From positions 12,994 to 76,993 of IMG/VR virus record IMGVR_UViG_3300047160_007019: a DNA stretch of 64,000 bases. One strand, written 5' to 3'. The DNA comes from a virus. Its lineage: Duplodnaviria > Caudoviricetes. The translations under genes and the position numbers were made by a program. This document shows, in pieces, positions 12,304-38,814 of the stretch (its first letter is position 1; every line of letters begins with the position of its first letter). A model generated the notes under the pieces. It was not told the origin of the DNA, did no database searches, and saw only the letters and a program-made list of their open reading frames with translations.

Positions 12304-15300
12304 CTGTCAACTCCTCGACACGCTCGGCGTATTCAATGGTCTGTACCGCTGGGTTTGCGGTTGCTCCCCACGTCAGGATGAACTGGTGATCGTTGCCGTT
12401 CCATGGCTCGATGGTGAATTCGTTGTCGTCCACTGGAGTACGCACCGGTGCCGCAGCACCTTCCACGAAAAGCTGCGTCTGCAAGCCCATGTAGTTGTCG
12501 GCGCGGACGCGCTCAACTCCGTAGGCCGTTTCATAGGCATCAAGGTAAAGCTTTGAGGACCAGTAGCCAGGGCGGTAGGTTGATTCGCCTTCCCACTGGC
12601 AGAGCTGGTTGGTCGCGGTGGTATCGGAGCCGTTGTAGGTGACACCAGCGATCTGCCAGAAGCCGAAGTCTGGCACGAAGTACAGGGTGTCTCCCGCGGT
12701 GTTGGTGACAGCGGCGGTGACGTGCACATCCACGCTGGCCAGTCCGAACCCATCCGGGTTCATATCCAGAATCATCCCGGCCTTGAGCTCGGCGGTCAGG
12801 CTGGTACTGCCGACGGTCTGCGAGTTGTTGACCGTGTACTTTCCACCGCCCAGGTAGGCGGTAATCATCGTCCCCGAGGTGACTCCGGTTCCGGAGATGA
12901 GAGTCCCCAGGCGCAGCAGGCCGCGGTTCGCGCTCGGAACTGCAGTGGCCGTCAGCGTGGTTCCTGAAATGGAGCCAGTGAAGTTGAACGAAGTGTCGAA
13001 CCAGAAGAAGTACAGGCGCTGGTTGACACAGGCAGTGATACTGCTCGGGGTCAGACCCTGCCATTCCCGGCGCGTGAACAGCTGGGAAGTGACGTTGCGG
13101 ATCTGGCCGAATCCAGCGTAACCGTAGACACCATCAGTCGAGGCAAACACCGCGCCGTAGTCCGGATGGTAGGCGGTGCTGCGCGCACTGACGCAAGCCT
13201 GCGGGAATGATTCCACGCCCATCTGGAACGCCGATGGATCAGTGCCGTATGCAGTGTACGGGCGTCCTTGAGTCAGGATGCCGATGTTGAAGCCCAAGGC
13301 TACCAGGGCGACGATGGGTGAGTCCGTCGCCAGGGCGTAGGACTGCGGCCAAGCCTGCGGTTGTCCGGCCACCGACAGGTACAGCGTGTTGCCGACGAAC
13401 CCGGCCAGAATCTCGTTTGGCAGCGCGATGATGCCAATGAGGTTGGATGGCGGAGGGTCCCAGTCGGCCGATTGCAGCGCCTCACCCAGGTCAGTCGTCG
13501 GCGTGGCGTCGATGTAGGTCCAGCCCGACAGCGTGTGGGTGACACCATACATCGTGAACGAGGTCTGCAACGAATAGGTGCCGCTGATGTTGGCGAAGTA
13601 GAACAGCGTCCCCCCGTTGGCCTGGATGGTCAGCGGTTGCGAAAGTGTTACGGAAGTGTTCGCAACGAAACTGGACACGGTGGTTCCAGGCGGTACTGCG
13701 CCGACGGCATCCGTGACTACCATGCCGTTCGAGATACCGGCAGTGCTGGTCATGGGGATCGTCGCCAGACCCGAGGCAACCGTGCTGCTGCTCGCCTGGA
13801 TCACCTGCGGCTCGTAGACCACGGTGTAGGCTTGACCCGAGACTATGGTGCCGGCACCGCTTCCTGCCAGGCTCACCGCAGCTCCACCGTTGAGGGCGAT
13901 GGTCACGGCCCCGGTGCTGGTAGCGGTGGCGATGAAGAAATAGCAGGTGTTCTGAGCCGGAGCCGCGCTGTCGGTAGTGGTCAGCGTGATCGCATTGGCA
14001 GTGCCTCCTACCTTACAGATCGGGAAGCCGCCGTCAGAATAGTTGCCGTTCTCGACTTGCTCATACTGGCTGCCGGAACTGCCGGTGGCAACGCGATACA
14101 GGTAGAGCTCGGAATACTCCGCCGCCAGCGTGGACGGCGTGGGGAAGCTGATGATGTTGATGTTGTCGTTGTCAACCTGTACCGACGGCGTGGACGGCGG
14201 ACTGACGCTGGATTCCAGGGACAGCGAGTTGGCGCCGGTGAACAGGTAGTTCGAGTAAACCGGGACCAGCGTGGCTGGCGGCTGGTTGACACTGACAATG
14301 ATGGTTCCAAAGTAGACATGGCCAGCATCCGGGGCGTTTGCGCCGGCGGCGCTGGCAATCTGCACGTCATCGCCGCAGTATGTTGCGGTCAGGCCGGTAG
14401 CCTGCGCAATGATCGCGCTGGTGGTGAGGTTCTTCACGACCACGGAGCAGGTATAGGTCCGAATGCCACTCGAACTCAGTCCATTGTTGACGCAGGTGAT
14501 GGACACTGCGAGAGGCGTGGTAGCGCCGAGACCCGATGTCGTCAAAGAGACCGCTGCGCTGCCAGCACCTTGGTCGGTCCAGGTGATATTGCCGCCGGTC
14601 TGGAATGGGAAGTACAGCTGCGCACCTTGCGAGTTCGAGGCGACAACGCGAATCAAGGCATCCTGATCCTCTACCAAGTCGCTGCCGTCGGTAGAGCTGA
14701 CATTGCAAGTGACGGTGAAGTTTACGCTGGTGGCGAAGTCAAAGGCCCCGTCAATGGTCGCCCACGTGGAGTTTGACTGTTGCGCCAGCACGTCATAGCA
14801 GGGATGGGGGATGGTCGGATGGCCACCACTGGCAATAGACGTGACGCTGCCGTAGGCGCCACTCCATCCAACCGACCACCCCGTCATATCCGTGATGTAG
14901 GGGAACGTGCTGGTGTTGTTCACCGATGAACCGGGAATGTTGCTCACCCCAGGCGCGGTGGTCGGGGCAGGCACCGCCAGGTTCTGCGACGCCACAGGGT
15001 ACGGGCCGTTCGGTGCTGTGTTGCCGTTAAGCGCCAGTGCCACGTTGGTGATTTGCGGAGCCCCGGTCCCAGCGAAAACCGTGCGGTAGGTCGTGTCGTT
15101 GGCGATGGGAATGCGCGCGACGCTGACCATGGTCGCGCCGTTCTGCAGTTCCGTATTGGCCCACGAGAACCATTTGGTGACGTTGGTGCCATCGTAGTAC
15201 GGATAGATGGTCGTGGTCGGGCCAGGCTTTCCCAGCGCGTATAGGTCCGAGATATCGTTCCAGGCCTCCAGATCTCCGGACAGCAGGCGCGCGTTCATCG

Positions 15301-20720: not shown

Positions 20721-22718
20721 TTAGATGCCGCTGTAGGTGACGTATCCCACCGCGATGTACGTCGGCTCCACCACGTCGAAGCCCCACAGGCACTGGCCGC
20801 GGAAAGCGGTCCCGAACTTGTTGGGCAGGCGGATGAACTCGGGCAGCATGTACTGCATTGCCCAGGTCAGGCCGTCGGGGTGGATGACCAGCACGTTCTC
20901 GCAGATCGGGTTGCCGGTCGAGCTGTCCACGTACTGCGGCAGGAAGGTGGACTCGAACAACTCCATGCCGTCGAACGGCCCGATGTAGCCCGTCCGGATG
21001 CCGCCCTCGCGGTCGCCGGTGACGTTGGCGGCCTGGAGGTTGGTCTGCATCAGCAGCTCTCGGTACGACGGCCCGATAACGACCTTCAGGCCCTCGGTGT
21101 AGACGTTGAGCTGCGTCAGCACGCGCTTCATCTTGAGCAGGAAGCTCTGCGCGTTGGACGTGGAGATGGATACCGGCGCACCGGCCGCCCCCAGGTTCGT
21201 GTCGGCGTTGATGCCCGCCGTCGCGCCCTGGTTGGTGGTGGCTACCTGCGCCGGGATGCCGGCGAGGATGGTCTTGTCCTGCTGGATCGAGATTTGCCGG
21301 ACAGCATCGTCCGACAGGCGCTCGAAGTTGTTGTTGATCGCCTGGTAGGCGTCCACGTCCTCGTAAACGAAGGCGTAGCCGTGGCGCTGGTTGATGTACA
21401 ACTGCGCCGCGGGCGTCGTCGGGGTCGTGTAGGCGCCCTGCGCCACAAGGTCGAAGTCCTTGTCGGCGAAGAAGACCTGCACGGTCGGCGTGCGCGGGAT
21501 GATGACGGATTGACCGTACTCGCGGATTTCCGTTTTCTTCATGTCCATGGTTCTTTATCCATGGCTCCTGCCGCTTTCGTCGGCAGACGAGACTATCTCT
21601 TTAGGCCGGTAGCGAATCACAGTGCCGAGACCCTGTTGAATCGCGTGTAGGCGCGCGTGTTGCTTTCTTGGCATCACTTCCAGATTTTCCGGAATGTTGT
21701 TGACCTTGTTTTCGTCGTCGTGATGGGCGACTTCCTCTTTGGTCAACGGACGGCCGAGCTTGCGCTCAGCGATGATGCGATGCTCGCGCACGTAACCCTT
21801 GGAGTCTGCCTCCGGGTGATCCGGCATCTGGATCATCCGGTAGCCGTTCCAGGTCGTGATGAAGCCGACATGGTAGGGGTCCTTGAATGGAATCCCCGCC
21901 GCGCGTGCGTGCTTCTTCACGGTGCCTGGATCAAGGCCGAGTTGCTTCGCAGCCTTCGGCGCAGACATTCCGCTCAGCGCCATGGCTTTGATTTTCTCGA
22001 CAATCTCCGGTGTTACTTTCCTATTCATGTTTTTGGCCTATCCCGTTTTCGTGGCGCTATACCGTCCGGTCTGGACTCCATGCGCTAGTCGTTGAACCTT
22101 CGCCGCATTCCTGCGGCGCTTGGCTGCTGATTGCCCAATCCGAACATTTTTCAGACCGTCGCGCTTGCCATTGCTGGCTACGCTGTGGTGTATTCGGCTC
22201 TGAGGGGTTTCCAGCAATTTACGGGATTTAACGAAGGCTAATTCAACCTTCCCACAGGTCGTGTTACCCATCGGGCTTTTTATCCCGATGTTCTGCGACT
22301 CTCGCCGCAGATCAGCATATTTCTTCATCCCCTTGTGATGGGGAGCCGCGCACTCGTGGACCTTCATAGTCCGGTCTGGACCGTATGGCCTATGCGTTGA
22401 ACCTTCCGGCCATTCCTGGTCGGCTTGGCTGCAGATTGCCCATTCCGGCGTGCACGCCGAATCCACGATCTTTTCGACCGTCGCATTTGTTCTTACGAAC
22501 TGTGCTGTGGTGACCATGGCTTTAGGGTTTTCCTGTCAGTTCACGCGGTTTTTCAACACCTGGGTTAGTTAAGTGTTGTTGCAGATTTCCGCTGCAATAA
22601 CTTTTCCGTAGTGCTTCACAGTGCACGTTGTCGACCACAAGGTCGGCAGCAGCGCACCGTTGGCAATCGTTGAAACGTCGGGGTACTGGGACCCCGGAAC
22701 AATTGGCAATGCGGCCAC
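20721..22718 (-). CDS. Major capsid protein, join(22572..22718, 22246..22254, 20721..21530), 321 aa after splicing
   Basis: GTG start with RBS GAGGA. The spliced junction reads ICNNT-WEG-EIREYGQSVIIPRTP, which aligns without gaps to the capsid motif I recall as ISNTDYEGEIKxxGDTVxIRxxP. Lies directly after the scaffold gene. Confidence 0.9.
21531..22245 (-). ncRNA. Group I intron 2 (715 nt, IA-like) carrying an HNH ORF in P8
   Basis: P1 GAAGGU/GCCUUC with U.G splice pair; P AAAUUGCUGGAAA; Q GGCAAUCAGCAGCCAAG; R GUUCAACGACUAG; S AAGAGAUAGUC; P3 AUCCCGU/ACGGGAU; P9 hairpins; terminal G at 21531. Confidence 0.92.
21555..22028 (-). CDS. Intron-encoded HNH homing endonuclease with N-terminal HTH
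   Basis: YVREHRIIAE..LGRPL..EEVAHHDDENKVNNIPENLEVM...HARLH. Confidence 0.88.
   Translation of the reverse strand: MNRKVTPEIVEKIKAMALSGMSAPKAAKQLGLDPGTVKKHARAAGIPFKDPYHVGFITTWNGYRMIQMPDHPEADSKGYVREHRIIAERKLGRPLTKEEVAHHDDENKVNNIPENLEVMPRKQHARLHAIQQGLGTVIRYRPKEIVSSADESGRSHG
22255..22571 (-). ncRNA. Group I intron 1 (317 nt, ORF-less)
   Basis: P1 CAACACU/GGUGUUG; P10 CCCA/UGGG; P GAACUGACAGGAAA; Q GGCAAUCUGCAGCCAAG; P7 GCAUA/UAUGC; P3 CCGCG/CGCGG; P8 UCCCC/GGGGA; P9 with GAGA tetraloop; terminal G at 22255. Confidence 0.88.
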
Positions 22719-22773
22719 GTTTGTTTCCTCTTTGGTTCAGAAGTGGTTGAGCGCGCCTGCCATGGACTGGGTA

Positions 22774-35742: not shown

Positions 35743-35818
35743 TGGTACCCCTGGGGAGACTCGAACTCCCGACACCCAACTTAGAACGAAGGGACTCTAC
35801 CGACTGAGCTACAGGGGT
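35743..35818 (-). tRNA. tRNA-Arg(TCT), atypical (G32, two U.U mismatches in the anticodon stem)
   Basis: Cloverleaf; CCTTC-GTTCTAA-GTTGG; CCA encoded. Confidence 0.7.
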
Positions 35819-35830
35819 ATGGCGGACGGT

Positions 35831-35906
35831 TGGATCAAGCAGCAGGAATCGAACCTGCGTGGTCGACGTTCAAAGCGTCGCTGGGATGCCAGCAACCCAT
35901 GCTTGA
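35831..35906 (-). tRNA. tRNA-Gln(TTG)
   Basis: CGACG-CTTTGAA-CGTCG; CCA. Confidence 0.88.
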
Positions 35907-35907
35907 A

Positions 35908-35982
35908 TGGAACGCCAGGAGGGAATCGAACCCTCGGCCACCCCGCTAGGACCGGGGAGCTCTACCGCTGAGCTACTGGCGT
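35908..35982 (-). tRNA. tRNA-Arg(CCT), G32/G38
   Basis: CCCCG-GTCCTAG-CGGGG; CCA. Confidence 0.85.
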
Positions 35983-35985
35983 GTG

Positions 35986-36063
35986 TGGTGCGCAGTGTGG
36001 GAGTCGAACCCACAAGCCGCTCGTTTTGAGCGAGCGAGGTATGCCAGTTCCCTTCAACTGCGC
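35986..36063 (-). tRNA. tRNA-Leu(CAA), short variable arm
   Basis: GCTCG-CTCAAAA-CGAGC; CCA. Confidence 0.88.
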
Positions 36064-36064
36064 G

Positions 36065-36141
36065 TGGTGCCGGGCCGGGGACTCGAACCCCGAAAACGCA
36101 AGGTTTAAATCTGCGATGTCTGCCGATTGCATCAGCCCGGC
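36065..36141 (-). tRNA. tRNA-Leu(TAA), short variable arm
   Basis: GCAGA-TTTAAAC-CTTGC; CCA. Confidence 0.82.
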
Positions 36142-36145
36142 GTAG

Positions 36146-36220
36146 TGGTGGGGCGCATGGGATTTGAACCCACATCGACCGGATTAAAAGTCCGGGGTCC
36201 TGCCGTTGGACGAACGCCCC
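36146..36220 (-). tRNA. tRNA-Lys(TTT)
   Basis: CCGGA-CTTTTAA-TCCGG; CCA. Confidence 0.9.
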
Positions 36221-36229
36221 GCATGAAAG

Positions 36230-36305
36230 TGGTGGTGACGGCCGGGCTTGAACCGGCGCCGTCCTGGTTATGGGCCAGGCGCTCTCCCGACTAAGCTACG
36301 TCACC
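36230..36305 (-). tRNA. tRNA-Met or Ile2 (CAT), C33
   Basis: CCTGG-CCCATAA-CCAGG; CCA. Confidence 0.85.
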
Positions 36306-36310
36306 GTGAT

Positions 36311-36389
36311 TGGTCGGAGCGGCGGGATTCGAACCCGCGGCCCACTGTCCCCCAGACAGGTGCGCTAAACCAGGCTGCGCCACGCTCCG
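36311..36389 (-). tRNA. tRNA-Pro(GGG)
   Basis: Loop CTGGGGG; C1-G72; CCA. Confidence 0.88.
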
Positions 36390-36395
36390 ATGTGA

Positions 36396-36486
36396 TGGCG
36401 GAAGGCGGAGGACTCGAACCCCAAGCGCTGTTGCGCTCCATCGGCTTTCAAGGCCGCGGCCAGCTCCGGTGCTGGCATCACCTTCC
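36396..36486 (-). tRNA. tRNA-Ser(TGA)
   Basis: Loop CTTGAAA; long variable arm; G73. Confidence 0.9.
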
Positions 36487-36491
36487 GTTGT

Positions 36492-36566
36492 TGGTGCCGG
36501 CGAGAGGATTCGAACCTCCAACCCGCGCGTTACGAATGCGCTGCGCTACCGTTGCGCTACGTCGGC
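36492..36566 (-). tRNA. tRNA-Thr(CGT)
   Basis: Loop TTCGTAA; CCA. Confidence 0.9.
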
Positions 36567-36572
36567 GAATAT

Positions 36573-36646
36573 TGGTGCCCCAACACAGAATCGAACTGTG
36601 CTCTCCTGCTTACAAGGCAGGTGCATCCCCACAATGCTTCAAGGGC
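36573..36646 (-). tRNA. tRNA-Thr(TGT)
   Basis: CCTGC-CTTGTAA-GCAGG; CCA. Confidence 0.88.
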
Positions 36647-36647
36647 G

Positions 36648-36722
36648 TGGTGCCATCGGCAGGAATCGGACCTGCGACCTCCGCTTTACCAAAGCGGCGT
36701 TCTACCACTGAACTACGAAGGC
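36648..36722 (-). tRNA. tRNA-Thr(GGT)
   Basis: CCGCT-TTGGTAA-AGCGG; T loop TCCGATT. Confidence 0.88.
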
Positions 36723-36723
36723 A

Positions 36724-36799
36724 TGGCGAACCATGCGGGAGTCCCACCCGCTTCGGTCAGCTTGAAGGGCTGATGGCTCCAGTCTTTGCCATATGGTTC
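36724..36799 (-). tRNA. tRNA-Glu(TTC), C33, T loop TGGGACT
   Basis: TCAGC-CCTTCAA-GCTGA; G73; CCA. Confidence 0.8.
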
Positions 36800-36805
36800 T
36801 TCGAA

Positions 36806-36883
36806 TGGTGCGCCAGGGGAGATTCGAACTCCCATGGGACTGCCACCTCAAGGCAGCGCGTATACCGATTCCGCCACTGGCGC
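36806..36883 (-). tRNA. tRNA-Leu(GAG), short variable arm
   Basis: CTGCC-TTGAGGT-GGCAG; CCA. Confidence 0.88.
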
Positions 36884-36889
36884 ATGGGT

Positions 36890-36963
36890 TGGTGGGCACA
36901 GAGGGAGTTGAACCCTCATCTTTCCGGTTAAGAGCCGGAGGCTCTGCGTTGAGCTACATGCCC
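36890..36963 (-). tRNA. tRNA-Lys(CTT)
   Basis: TCCGG-CTCTTAA-CCGGA; CCA. Confidence 0.9.
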
Positions 36964-36971
36964 ATGGAAAA

Positions 36972-37047
36972 TGGAGGGATAGGTGGAAGTCGAATCCACT
37001 AGCCAACGGAGTCACAGTCCGCGCCCGCGCCGTTTGGGTTCTATCCC
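36972..37047 (-). tRNA. tRNA-His(GTG), no encoded G-1, U73
   Basis: GCGGA-CTGTGAC-TCCGT; acceptor GGGATAG/CTATCCC-T-CCA. Confidence 0.85.
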
Positions 37048-37052
37048 GCTGA

Positions 37053-37127
37053 TGGTGCACCAGGGTGGAGTCAAACCACCGGCCTATCGCTTATCGGGCG
37101 AGTGCTCTTTCGCTGAGCTACAGGTGC
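37053..37127 (-). tRNA. tRNA-Ile(GAT), C33
   Basis: Loop CCGATAA; CCA. Confidence 0.85.
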
Positions 37128-37135
37128 ATGAAATG

Positions 37136-37210
37136 TGGCGCCCTTGGCGGGTGCTGACCCCGCGGCCTCCCGCTCGACAGGCGGGCGTTCCACCGTTGAA
37201 CTACAAGGGC
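37136..37210 (-). tRNA. tRNA-Asp(GTC), T loop GTCAGCA
   Basis: CCCGC-CTGTCGA-GCGGG; G73. Confidence 0.82.
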
Positions 37211-37216
37211 AAAGCT

Positions 37217-37293
37217 TGGTGCGTCCGGGTGGGTACGATCCACCGACCTCCGCCCTGTCATGGCGGCGTTCTGCCAATTTGAACTACGGACGC
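37217..37293 (-). tRNA. tRNA-Val(GAC), A32/G38, T loop ATCGTAC
   Basis: CCGCC-ATGACAG-GGCGG; CCA. Confidence 0.82.
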
Positions 37294-37300
37294 GCATGTG

Positions 37301-37391
37301 TGGCGGATCGTAGAGGAGTCGAACCTCTGTGTCCCCTGTAGGAACCATCTGTTTAGCAAACAGCGCCGTTTGGCCTCTCCGGCAACGATCC
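37301..37391 (-). tRNA. tRNA-Ser(GCT)
   Basis: Loop TTGCTAA; long variable arm; G73. Confidence 0.88.
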
Positions 37392-37399
37392 AGGACTTG

Positions 37400-37486
37400 T
37401 GGCGGATGGAGCAGGACTCGAACCTGCAGGCCGCTTGCGCAGCACCTCGCTTCCAACGAGGATCCTTACCGTTCGGACATCCATCC
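37400..37486 (-). tRNA. tRNA-Ser(GGA)
   Basis: Loop TTGGAAG; long variable arm; G73. Confidence 0.9.
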
Positions 37487-37491
37487 AAAGC

Positions 37492-37570
37492 TGGTAGCCA
37501 ACCAGGGAGTCGAACCCTGCACCTCCGGTTTGTAGGACCGGCACTCTACTCGATCATGAGCTAGTCGGCT
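37492..37570 (-). tRNA. tRNA-Val(TAC), C33
   Basis: CCGGT-CCTACAA-ACCGG; CCA. Confidence 0.86.
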
Positions 37571-37580
37571 GTGGTGATGG

Positions 37581-37652
37581 TGGTGGAGCAACCGGGAGTT
37601 GAACCCGGCGAGCTGATCTTGCAAGGATCGGCTGCGCCCCGGCGCTTGCCCC
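37581..37652 (-). tRNA. tRNA-Ala(TGC), very short D loop
   Basis: G3.U70; loop CTTGCAA; 72 nt. Confidence 0.85.
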
Positions 37653-37658
37653 ATGTGC

Positions 37659-37735
37659 TGGTCCGTGTAGCGAGACTTGAACTCGCGGCCTCATCGTCCC
37701 GAACGATGCGCTCTACCAGGCTGAGCTACACACGG
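37659..37735 (-). tRNA. tRNA-Pro(CGG)
   Basis: CATCG-TTCGGGA-CGATG; C1-G72. Confidence 0.92.
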
Positions 37736-37743
37736 ATGAAAGA

Positions 37744-37818
37744 TGGTCGGAGTGGAGAGAATCGAACTCCCTTGAACGTGCGCCCAAGGCACGGGGCCAG
37801 CCAATGGCCCACACTCCG
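37744..37818 (-). tRNA. tRNA-Pro(TGG)
   Basis: CGTGC-CTTGGGC-GCACG; C1-G72. Confidence 0.9.
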
Positions 37819-37823
37819 GTTGA

Positions 37824-37916
37824 TGGTGCTTGCGCTAGGATTCGAACCTAGATCGTGCGCTAATCGGGCGCTTCAGGGTCTATAAGGCCCTCGCTCTACC
37901 GTTGAGCTACGCAAGC
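37824..37916 (-). tRNA. tRNA-Ile(TAT) with a long variable arm
   Basis: AGGGC-CTTATAG-ACCCT; variable arm GCGC-CCGATTA-GCGC; 93 nt. Confidence 0.82.
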
Positions 37917-37920
37917 ATGG

Positions 37921-37996
37921 TGGTGGTCCCGGCCCGATTCGAACGGGCGTCTCCGCGTCTTCAGCGCGGCGCTAAGGCCGTCTCAGCTACAGGACC
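37921..37996 (-). tRNA. tRNA-Phe(GAA)
   Basis: CCGCG-CTGAAGA-CGCGG; CCA. Confidence 0.9.
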
Positions 37997-37999
37997 ATG

Positions 38000-38075
38000 T
38001 GGCACAGGGGACAGGCTTCGAACCTGCAACCTGCGGTTTTGGAGACCGCCGCTCTACCAATTGAGCTACCCCCAT
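38000..38075 (-). tRNA. tRNA-Trp(CCA)
   Basis: GCGGT-CTCCAAA-ACCGC; G73. Confidence 0.9.
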
Positions 38076-38076
38076 A

Positions 38077-38151
38077 TGGAAGCCTGGGCCGGAATCAAAC
38101 CGGCGTCGTTGCGCTTTGCAGGCGCACGCATAATCACTCTGCCACCAGGCT
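38077..38151 (-). tRNA. tRNA-Cys(GCA)
   Basis: TGCGC-CTGCAAA-GCGCA; U73. Confidence 0.92.
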
Positions 38152-38154
38152 GTT

Positions 38155-38229
38155 TGGAGCGGACGGCGGGGATCGAACCCGCGACATCGAACTTGGAAGG
38201 ATCGCGTTCTGCCTCTGAACTACGCCCGC
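38155..38229 (-). tRNA. tRNA-Gly(TCC)
   Basis: Loop CTTCCAA; U73. Confidence 0.9.
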
Positions 38230-38236
38230 ATGATGT

Positions 38237-38312
38237 TGGCTTCGACGGCACGAGTCGAACGTGCGTGGCCTTGGTTCAGAGCCAAGATGGGATGCCGGCA
38301 ACCCGCGTCGAA
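38237..38312 (-). tRNA. tRNA-Gln(CTG)
   Basis: CTTGG-CTCTGAA-CCAAG; G73. Confidence 0.9.
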
Positions 38313-38320
38313 ACAGGATC

Positions 38321-38395
38321 TGGAACCCCCGGCGCGATTTGAACGCGCGACATCCGCCTTCGGAGAGCGGTGCTCTACCACTGAGCTACGAGGGT
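38321..38395 (-). tRNA. tRNA-Arg(CCG)
   Basis: CCGCT-CTCCGAA-GGCGG; CCA. Confidence 0.9.
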
Positions 38396-38400
38396 GAATC

Positions 38401-38476
38401 TGGAACCCCTGGCAGGACTCGAACCTGCGGCCTCCGACTTCGTAGGACGGCATTCTTCCAACTGAACTACAGGGGT
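38401..38476 (-). tRNA. tRNA-Arg(ACG)
   Basis: Loop CTACGAA; CCA. Confidence 0.9.
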
Positions 38477-38482
38477 ACAGGG

Positions 38483-38562
38483 TGGTGCGTAGCCCCGGAC
38501 TCGAACCGGGAAACCGCTGGGTCTGAGCCAGCGAGGTATACCAAGATTCCCTTCAGCTACGC
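38483..38562 (-). tRNA. tRNA-Leu(CAG), short variable arm
   Basis: GCTGG-CTCAGAC-CCAGC; CCA. Confidence 0.88.
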
Positions 38563-38566
38563 GAAA

Positions 38567-38655
38567 TGGTGGGTGCTGGCGGAGTCGAACCGATGCCCAT
38601 GGGGAGCTGGTTTACAGCCAGCCGTCTTTCCAAAAGACCTTACGTCGCAACACCC
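38567..38655 (-). tRNA. tRNA-Tyr(GTA), atypical D region and T stem
   Basis: GCTGG-CTGTAAA-CCAGC; extra bases before a GTCTTT/AAAGAC D stem. Confidence 0.75.
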
Positions 38656-38656
38656 T

Positions 38657-38731
38657 TGGCTCCAGTGGAGGGATTCGAACCCCCGGTGAGGTCATTAACA
38701 GTGACCGGCCTTTCCGCTTGGCTACACTGGA
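38657..38731 (-). tRNA. tRNA-Asn(GTT)
   Basis: GGTCA-CTGTTAA-TGACC; G73. Confidence 0.92.
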
Positions 38732-38739
38732 ATAGAAAT

Positions 38740-38814
38740 TGGAGCGGTGGACGAGAATCGAACTCGTATGATCCTGCTTGGCAAGCAGGTGCCCAACCAC
38801 TGGACCACCACCGC
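38740..38814 (-). tRNA. tRNA-Gly(GCC), first tRNA of the array
   Basis: CCTGC-TTGCCAA-GCAGG; U73. Confidence 0.92.

Follow-up and report, generated by a model that had tools for sequence, protein, structure and literature searches.

How could a phage make its most abundant virion protein when two introns leave only nine bases of coding sequence between them? The question is raised by a locus in the window, by which we mean the whole 64,000-nucleotide (nt) stretch analysed here (positions 12,994 to 76,993 of IMG/VR record IMGVR_UViG_3300047160_007019; Duplodnaviria, Caudoviricetes). On its minus strand, the major capsid gene is laid out as three exons and two group I introns that lie only nine bases apart. 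Our analysis indicates that this gene, carried by an uncultured, podophage-like soil virus of approximately 77 kb, is very probably split by two independent mobile group I introns around a 9-nt exon. The most abundant virion protein would then depend on two ribozyme reactions on one nine-base exon.

A capsid gene in three exons

Joined together, the three exons (Table 1) form a single open frame of 321 codons (49 + 3 + 269), reading ...ICNNTWEGEIREYGQ, with predicted spliced RNA junctions ACU^UGGGAAGGU^GAA (^, splice junction) and a protein that runs ...EICNNT-WEG-EIREYGQSVIIPRTP... across them. Exon 3 matches the Pfam family Phage_capsid_4 (PF25209; 34.3 bits against a cut-off of 27, E = 4e-8) and the PHROG major head protein family phrog_267 (E = 5e-20), and loci of capsid homologs carry SU10_portal upstream and SU10_adaptor downstream. 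By its profile matches (Phage_capsid_4; phrog_267), the gene product is an HK97-type phage major capsid protein.

Table 1 Features of the split capsid gene, in window coordinates
Feature	Positions	Strand	Details
Shine-Dalgarno-like GAGGA	22726..22730	-	7 nt 5' of the GTG start; read from sequence
Exon 1, major capsid gene	22572..22718	-	49 codons, GTG 22718 to AAC AAC ACT; 86% identity to P0001 residues 1-49
Intron 1, group I	22255..22571	-	317 nt, without an open reading frame; begins with in-frame TAA, terminal G22255
Internal guide of intron 1	22554..22564	-	CCCA 22564-22561 (P10) and GGUGUUG 22560-22554 (P1); read from sequence
Micro-exon TGGGAAGGT	22254..22246	-	encodes W50-E51-G52
Intron 2, group I	21531..22245	-	715 nt; begins with in-frame TGA, terminal G21531; guide GCCUUC 22238-22233
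Intron-encoded HNH homing endonuclease	21555..22028	-	157 amino acids, N-terminal helix-turn-helix
Exon 3, major capsid gene	20721..21530	-	starts GAA ATC; 269 codons and TAA; Pfam and PHROG capsid profiles; 90% identity to P0001
Possible alternative junction hairpin	22226..22274	-	core CGACCU/AGGUUG; intron 1 3' tail with micro-exon and intron 2 start; minimum free energy prediction

A search with exon 3 returned nine relatives, the shorter matches being exon-3-only gene calls from intron-bearing relatives. The nearest full-length one, the intronless homolog P0001 (319 amino acids, aa), is 90% identical and reads ...EICNNT-WNG-EIENYGQ, aligning without a gap to exon 1, WEG and exon 3; other homologs read NND-WEG-DIK and NND-WEG-EIK. 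Between them, exon 1 and exon 3 leave three alignment columns, W-[ENT]-[GA], in P0001 and five others, and W50 of the micro-exon is invariant across the six full-length homologs. Judged by this alignment, the exons rebuild the conserved capsid protein only if both introns leave at the bases given in Table 1. In the phage database there were no close relatives (best capsid match 30% identity, Rhizobium phages), and only one further locus came from each of the metagenome and genome scans, these being intronless or known already. Relatives are binned with metagenome-assembled genomes of Lysobacteraceae/Xanthomonadaceae.

Natural alleles of the gene that carry one intron or none mark the same two positions, which we refer to as site 1 (intron 1) and site 2 (intron 2). 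L001, L007 and L091 are intronless; the L001 gene starts with GTG GCC GCA after GGAGAAACAAA, and an intronless site of its type reads ...AACAACACATGGAATGGCGAGATT.... In L002 only site 1 is occupied, by an 883-nt intron with a LAGLIDADG open reading frame (ORF; phrog_11023, E = 5e-18). Its exon 1 has 49 codons and ends AAC GAT, its guide, CCCA-GUCGUU, is similar to that of intron 1, and after the intron end ...CCCG the gene reads TGGGAGGGCGAGATC, unbroken at site 2. Conversely, L003 (= L008 = L016) has an intron at site 2 only, 404 nt long, ORF-less and with the guide GCCCUCC, bounded as ...AAT ACC TGG GAG GGT ^ intron ...AAAACG ^ GAT ATT. Two distant capsid genes (...DYEG^EI...) in L093 and L094, reached via homologs of the HNH protein of intron 2, also have an HNH-bearing intron at site 2, and that of L094 scores 52.4 bits against the Rfam group I model RF00028, above the Rfam cut-off. 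Because single-intron alleles mark each site independently, each boundary of the micro-exon is fixed.

The first-pass annotation, made from the sequence of the window, had proposed the splice product ICNNT-WEG-EIREYG with boundaries ACT^...G^TGGGAAGGT^...G^GAA. The product is supported by the colinearity of exon 1, WEG and exon 3 with intronless homologs, an alignment that the annotation had itself suggested and that runs across both junctions with exactly three residues between the exons; the boundaries are those that the single-intron relatives mark on their own account. Its coordinates and sequence statements (exon ends, TAA and TGA after them, terminal Gs, GAA ATC) all hold.

In the close relatives, a T precedes all four occupied sites (ACT and GGT in the window, GAT in L002, GGT in L003), and the base before each of the eight empty sites is A or C. 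Such a wobble-T pattern would be expected if the U.G pair is required, or from co-conversion during homing. Alleles with zero, one or two introns show two adjoining positions within the conserved (W/Y)EG^EI-coding DNA as recurrent targets of different mobile introns, with an HNH ORF, a LAGLIDADG ORF or none.

Further variation was seen around site 2. In L004 (positions 1-200), a capsid relative at 88% identity, an intron ends ...CCCTGG^GAAATC at site 2 with a 3' region that differs; the contig starts inside the intron, and a small reverse-strand ORF lies at the contig start. L093 (ENA ERZ27247796 contig k141_1010031) has a 51-nt insert at 1189-1239, 21 nt 5' of its HNH-bearing intron. The insert starts after GAGAT, contains an in-frame TAA, ends in G and has a GUCUC guide able to pair with exon GAGAU (U.G), without a ribozyme core; removing it gives EI-AS-TDYEG, colinear with EI-AN-RDYEG of L094. 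By these features, it resembles a mini-intron that lacks a core and lies next to a full intron.

Gene callers miss the arrangement, as the first-pass annotation had pointed out. The ORF list gives a 275-aa ORF, MDMKKTEIREYG... (MDMKKT..., 20721-21548), that starts within intron 2 and lacks the 49-codon exon 1 and the 3-codon exon. With the capsid gene truncated in this way, the main marker for phage classification is wrong in the window genome and its relatives. Another listed ORF (22517-22038, 159 aa) runs through intron 1 and the micro-exon into the first part of intron 2; it matches neither Pfam nor PHROG and was set aside as spurious.

Two introns of one phage family

At the curated gathering threshold (50 bits for RF00028), an Rfam scan returned only tRNAs and no intron. 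E-value mode gave two separate matches, each full-length (model positions 1-253), as the first-pass annotation had expected of group I covariance models: intron 1 at 22604-22293 (41.0 bits, E = 1.2e-8) and intron 2 at 22266-21568 (44.1 bits, E = 1.4e-9). Both were reproduced in a scan of the whole window, and RF00028 has no other match in the 76,993-bp virus record, which is 94% complete. The intron cores are similar to those of known introns of Bacillus, Staphylococcus and Pseudomonas phages, one of them annotated Intron_gpI.

Each intron has guide pairings of its own. For intron 1, the exon 1 end CAACACU pairs with GGUGUUG to form P1, with U.G at the splice site, and bases 1-4 of the micro-exon, UGGG, pair with CCCA to form P10. 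For intron 2, bases 4-9 of the same micro-exon, GAAGGU, form P1 with GCCUUC, again with U.G at the junction; base G4 is used by both helices. All pairs are standard in the intron 1 helices P3, P4, P5, P5a-c, P6, P6a, P7, P7.1, P7.2, P8 and P9, and its fold has a z-score of -3.9. P7 has five base pairs in both introns and starts with G-C, the next two pairs of intron 1 being swapped with compensation. The earlier description of a separate P1 with U.G, P3, P8, P9 and terminal G for each intron agrees with the pairings found here, and the two introns differ from each other in P1, P10, P3 and P7. P7.1 and P7.2 lie between P7 and P3', which we take to be the subgroup IA layout. The ORF of intron 2 is located in the P8 loop and extends via P8', P7' and P9 into the P9.1 loop, where its stop codon lies. 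A different P1 placed by Rfam in intron 2 (CGACCU/AGGUUG) was rejected in favour of GAAGGU/GCCUUC, which has U.G at the junction that the homologs require.

Short repeats of the guide targets occur inside the introns. GAAGGU, the target of the intron 2 guide, recurs at 22405-22400 and 22365-22360 in intron 1 and at 22101-22096 in intron 2; these copies are in the conserved P6/J6-7 region and, in misfolded cores, might act as cryptic 5' splice sites. AACAC at 22265-22261 (nt 307-311 of intron 1) has the same bases as the guide-paired end of exon 1, and could be an alternative pairing or a relic of insertion.

A motif common to the two window introns, AAGGTTCAACG...TCCAGACCGG, is present in 74 viral contigs. 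We aligned 36 introns of this family, comprising 33 distinct examples, the two window introns and the L003 intron. In this alignment, 83.5% of cells are paired and the covariation score is 0.318; shifting the 3' partners by 1-3 columns lowers these values to 32-40% and 0.05-0.09. The consensus structure came from intron 1, which biases the comparison with the shifted versions in its favour, and the size of the gap and the number of types of compensatory pairs well exceed that bias. No shuffle out of 500 equals the real alignment on any of the five measures, and two-sided compensatory changes are seen in P3, P5b, P6a, P7.1, P7.2 and P9. Where the 3' end is readable, every member has a P9.1 hairpin whose stems covary and whose loop is of the GAUAAAGA type. 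On this covariation evidence, both introns belong to one phage intron family that is widespread in viral contigs.

The P7 helix of intron 1 is unusual within the family, reading GCAUA/UAUGC against GACUA/UAGUC. At pairs 269/373 and 270/372, it has the single CG and the single AU where 25 and 28 others have AU and CG. By its pairing, the P7 of intron 1 is a doubly compensated variant and not a broken helix.

Common membership does not make the two introns sisters. Over its core, intron 1 has approximately 70% identity with many members of the family, among them the L003 intron at site 2, and the nearest relatives of intron 2 are introns on other contigs; between intron 1 and the L002 intron at the same site, no blastn similarity is detectable. 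An origin of intron 1 by local duplication, or by a 9-nt transposition of intron 2, was not supported, the window introns not being mutual closest relatives. Independent invasions from a common pool are more likely, fitting these relationships better than local duplication does. Elsewhere, major-head genes of other uncultured phages (phrog_1357; L027:3600-4900, L029:4150-4900 and L058:5050-5800) are interrupted by introns of this family, two to four per gene, leaving exons of approximately 57-100 nt. Capsid genes seem to be a recurrent target of invasion by the family.

Proposed splicing across nine bases

In the mechanism that we propose, each intron would follow standard two-step, guanosine-initiated splicing, and after both reactions the capsid protein would have 321 aa and include ...CNNT-WEG-EIREYGQ. 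Transcription reaches intron 1 and the micro-exon ahead of the 715-nt intron 2, and intron 1 could finish both steps first; the order would probably be sequential, intron 1 and then intron 2. Once intron 1 has been removed, intron 2 would have an ordinary long 5' exon and the clash at G4 would be gone. The differences between the introns in their recognition and core helices would prevent cross-reaction of the ribozymes and skipping of the micro-exon.

A hairpin predicted across the intron 1/micro-exon/intron 2 junction may contribute to this order. Its minimum free energy is computed as -16.4 kcal/mol (z = -3.2; 1 of 200 shuffles as good), and its core is predicted to be isoenergetic with P1 of intron 2 (-7.5 against -7.0). 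The hairpin would compete with this P1 and could delay intron 2 until intron 1 is gone; we found no second double-intron allele with which to compare it. We offer only tentatively, and regard as rather doubtful, the full proposal that all nine bases are claimed by guide helices (P10 of intron 1 sharing G4 with P1 of intron 2), that the two introns could not dock their substrates at the same time, that their order is enforced by transcription and the masking hairpin, and that this is possibly the smallest exon known between two autonomous group I ribozymes in a phage or bacterial protein gene. Were it true, the obligatory order and the masking hairpin, along with the natural alleles of zero, one and two introns, would provide a ready-made system for studying how adjacent ribozymes are coordinated and how exon skipping is avoided.

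Could the double-intron allele be a metagenome assembly chimera of intron-1-only and intron-2-only populations? The source is a metagenome, and single-intron alleles do occur in related phages, but we find this scarcely credible. The single-intron relatives are 55-63% identical in protein, which does not make them co-assembling strains, and nine common bases are too few to join two assemblies. Moreover, contig X2, from a different run, crosses intron 1, the micro-exon and intron 2 (22231-22381, 151 nt, no differences). The exon 1/intron 1 junction is spanned by the exact contigs X4 (22407-22628) and X5 (22476-22660), and the intron 2/exon 3 junction by the exact contig X1 (20831-21636). With its junctions bridged exactly by contigs of other runs, the arrangement is not an assembly artefact. 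The stretch occurs in many soil-metagenome runs and in no RNA run. The bridging contigs come from different soil-metagenome runs, possibly of one campaign, which speaks for a reproducible sequence and not for wide distribution; the intronless joint was not seen in four DNA runs over this stretch, at a depth so low as to be uninformative on the existence of such alleles. The 1,041-nt block of intron 1, micro-exon and intron 2 might instead be removed whole, or the micro-exon usually skipped, leaving a capsid protein without WEG. Omission of nine bases, a multiple of three, would keep the capsid frame intact, and skipping between two related introns is known from Staphylococcus phage Twort orf142 and from engineered tandem Tetrahymena introns (PMC10136302). 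We nevertheless consider it highly improbable here: W50 is invariant and the W-x-G/A triplet is present in 6/6 full-length homologs, the P10 guide CCCA of intron 1 fits UGGG of the micro-exon and not GAAA of exon 3, and single-intron alleles suggest that each site works alone. The window introns also differ in P1, P10, P3 and P7, and in the engineering study differentiating the splice-site recognition elements (P1, P10 and P9-region helices) suppressed skipping (PMC10136302).

A decaying or defective virus, in which one intron or both have lost splicing and left a dead capsid gene, is likewise very unlikely, intron 1 being the likelier failure with its non-consensus P7 and no endonuclease. Both Rfam scores are under the gathering cut-off, nearly every other family member has a P7 different from that of intron 1, and the capsid gene is known here from DNA alone. 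Against this, pairing is intact in every core helix, with double compensation of the P7 change; both exons are 86-90% identical to a homolog that is intact, and contain neither frameshift nor stop; a wobble T still precedes each intron; and sequence identical to that of this 94%-complete genome recurs in several soil runs. A capsid gene split by two introns around the micro-exon remains our preferred reading, and several points weigh against it. Neither RF00028 match, at 41 and 44 bits, attains the 50-bit gathering score. Intron 2 has a weak P10 of three to four pairs, and its 3' splice site consequently rests on the terminal G and on colinearity with homologs. Given the internal GAAGGU copies and the competing junction hairpin, mis-splicing is conceivable. 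Lastly, we infer splicing, its order and its efficiency from the sequence.

Proposed mobility and related arrangements

The ORF of intron 2 matches Pfam HNH_3 (PF13392; 35.7 bits against a cut-off of 24.8, E = 6.5e-9) and PHROG HNH endonuclease families down to E = 6e-21. Homologs of 47-87% identity lie inside introns at the same capsid site (L092, L093 and L094), those of 47-55% having led to L093 and L094. Because the HNH ORF recurs with site-2 introns across diverged capsid genes, the protein probably targets capsid site 2. Intron 2 would be mobile through this endonuclease acting on the conserved (W/Y)EG^EI-coding DNA, and the ORF-less intron 1, 9 bp away, may be inherited by co-conversion or be immobile.

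A close published parallel is orf142 of Twort, which has, as outlined in PMC10136302, three group I introns, with introns 2 and 3 flanking a 23-nt exon, and undergoes exon skipping. Both loci have tandem introns of subgroup IA type in a late phage gene, with a very short exon and both ribozymes on one transcript. In the window, the exon is 9 nt instead of 23 and each of its bases is engaged by the P10 of intron 1 or the P1 of intron 2, the introns differ in the four helices named above, the host gene encodes the major capsid protein, and splicing is deduced from DNA. The 23S ribosomal RNA of Coxiella burnetii reportedly contains two self-splicing group I introns around a 34-bp exon; these, too, are bacterial-type introns adjoining a short exon, although the host gene is a ribosomal RNA gene and the exon is longer.

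Capsid genes with introns have also been described. In mycobacteriophage LittleE, a capsid-gene group I intron with an HNH gene was proven to splice by reverse transcription-polymerase chain reaction and N-terminal sequencing (PMC3706429), and a capsid-gene intron of lactococcal phage Tuc2009 is cited in the same paper. LittleE resembles the window in that an HNH-bearing mobile intron of group I type interrupts the gene for its most abundant virion protein, the exon ending in U and the intron in G; it differs in its single intron, the opposite strand of its HNH gene and its proven splicing. The major capsid gene L425 of Mimivirus has three exons, two introns and a fully spliced mRNA (PMC2688009). 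It, too, is a viral major capsid gene that needs two splicing events and that the original annotation truncated, but it belongs to a eukaryotic giant virus and has long exons and a double jelly-roll capsid. In mitochondria, mini-exons of less than approximately four codons between group I or II introns are regular and missed by gene callers (PMC10352661), in a different, organellar setting where splicing is often protein-dependent.

The first-pass annotation had known of no such case in a phage capsid gene, a claim of novelty that was overstated in view of the published capsid-gene introns of LittleE and Tuc2009 and the short exon of Twort. Both the kind of element and the kind of arrangement are already known, and no new kind of element is present. 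The unusual features are an extremely short exon, whose nine bases are all used by the two guides, and a series of natural alleles. We found no mini-exon of the mitochondrial type described for phage genes in the literature, and, in a literature coverage that is incomplete, no phage micro-exon between group I introns under the 23 nt of Twort. The locus is a natural test bed for intron homing, co-conversion and the coordination of tandem ribozymes.

Away from the capsid gene, the minus strand of the window holds a dense tRNA array at 35743-38814, with more than 25 genes, large for a 77-kb phage. Within it lies a tRNA-Sec-like gene (36400-36486; 48.7 bits against a cut-off of 47).

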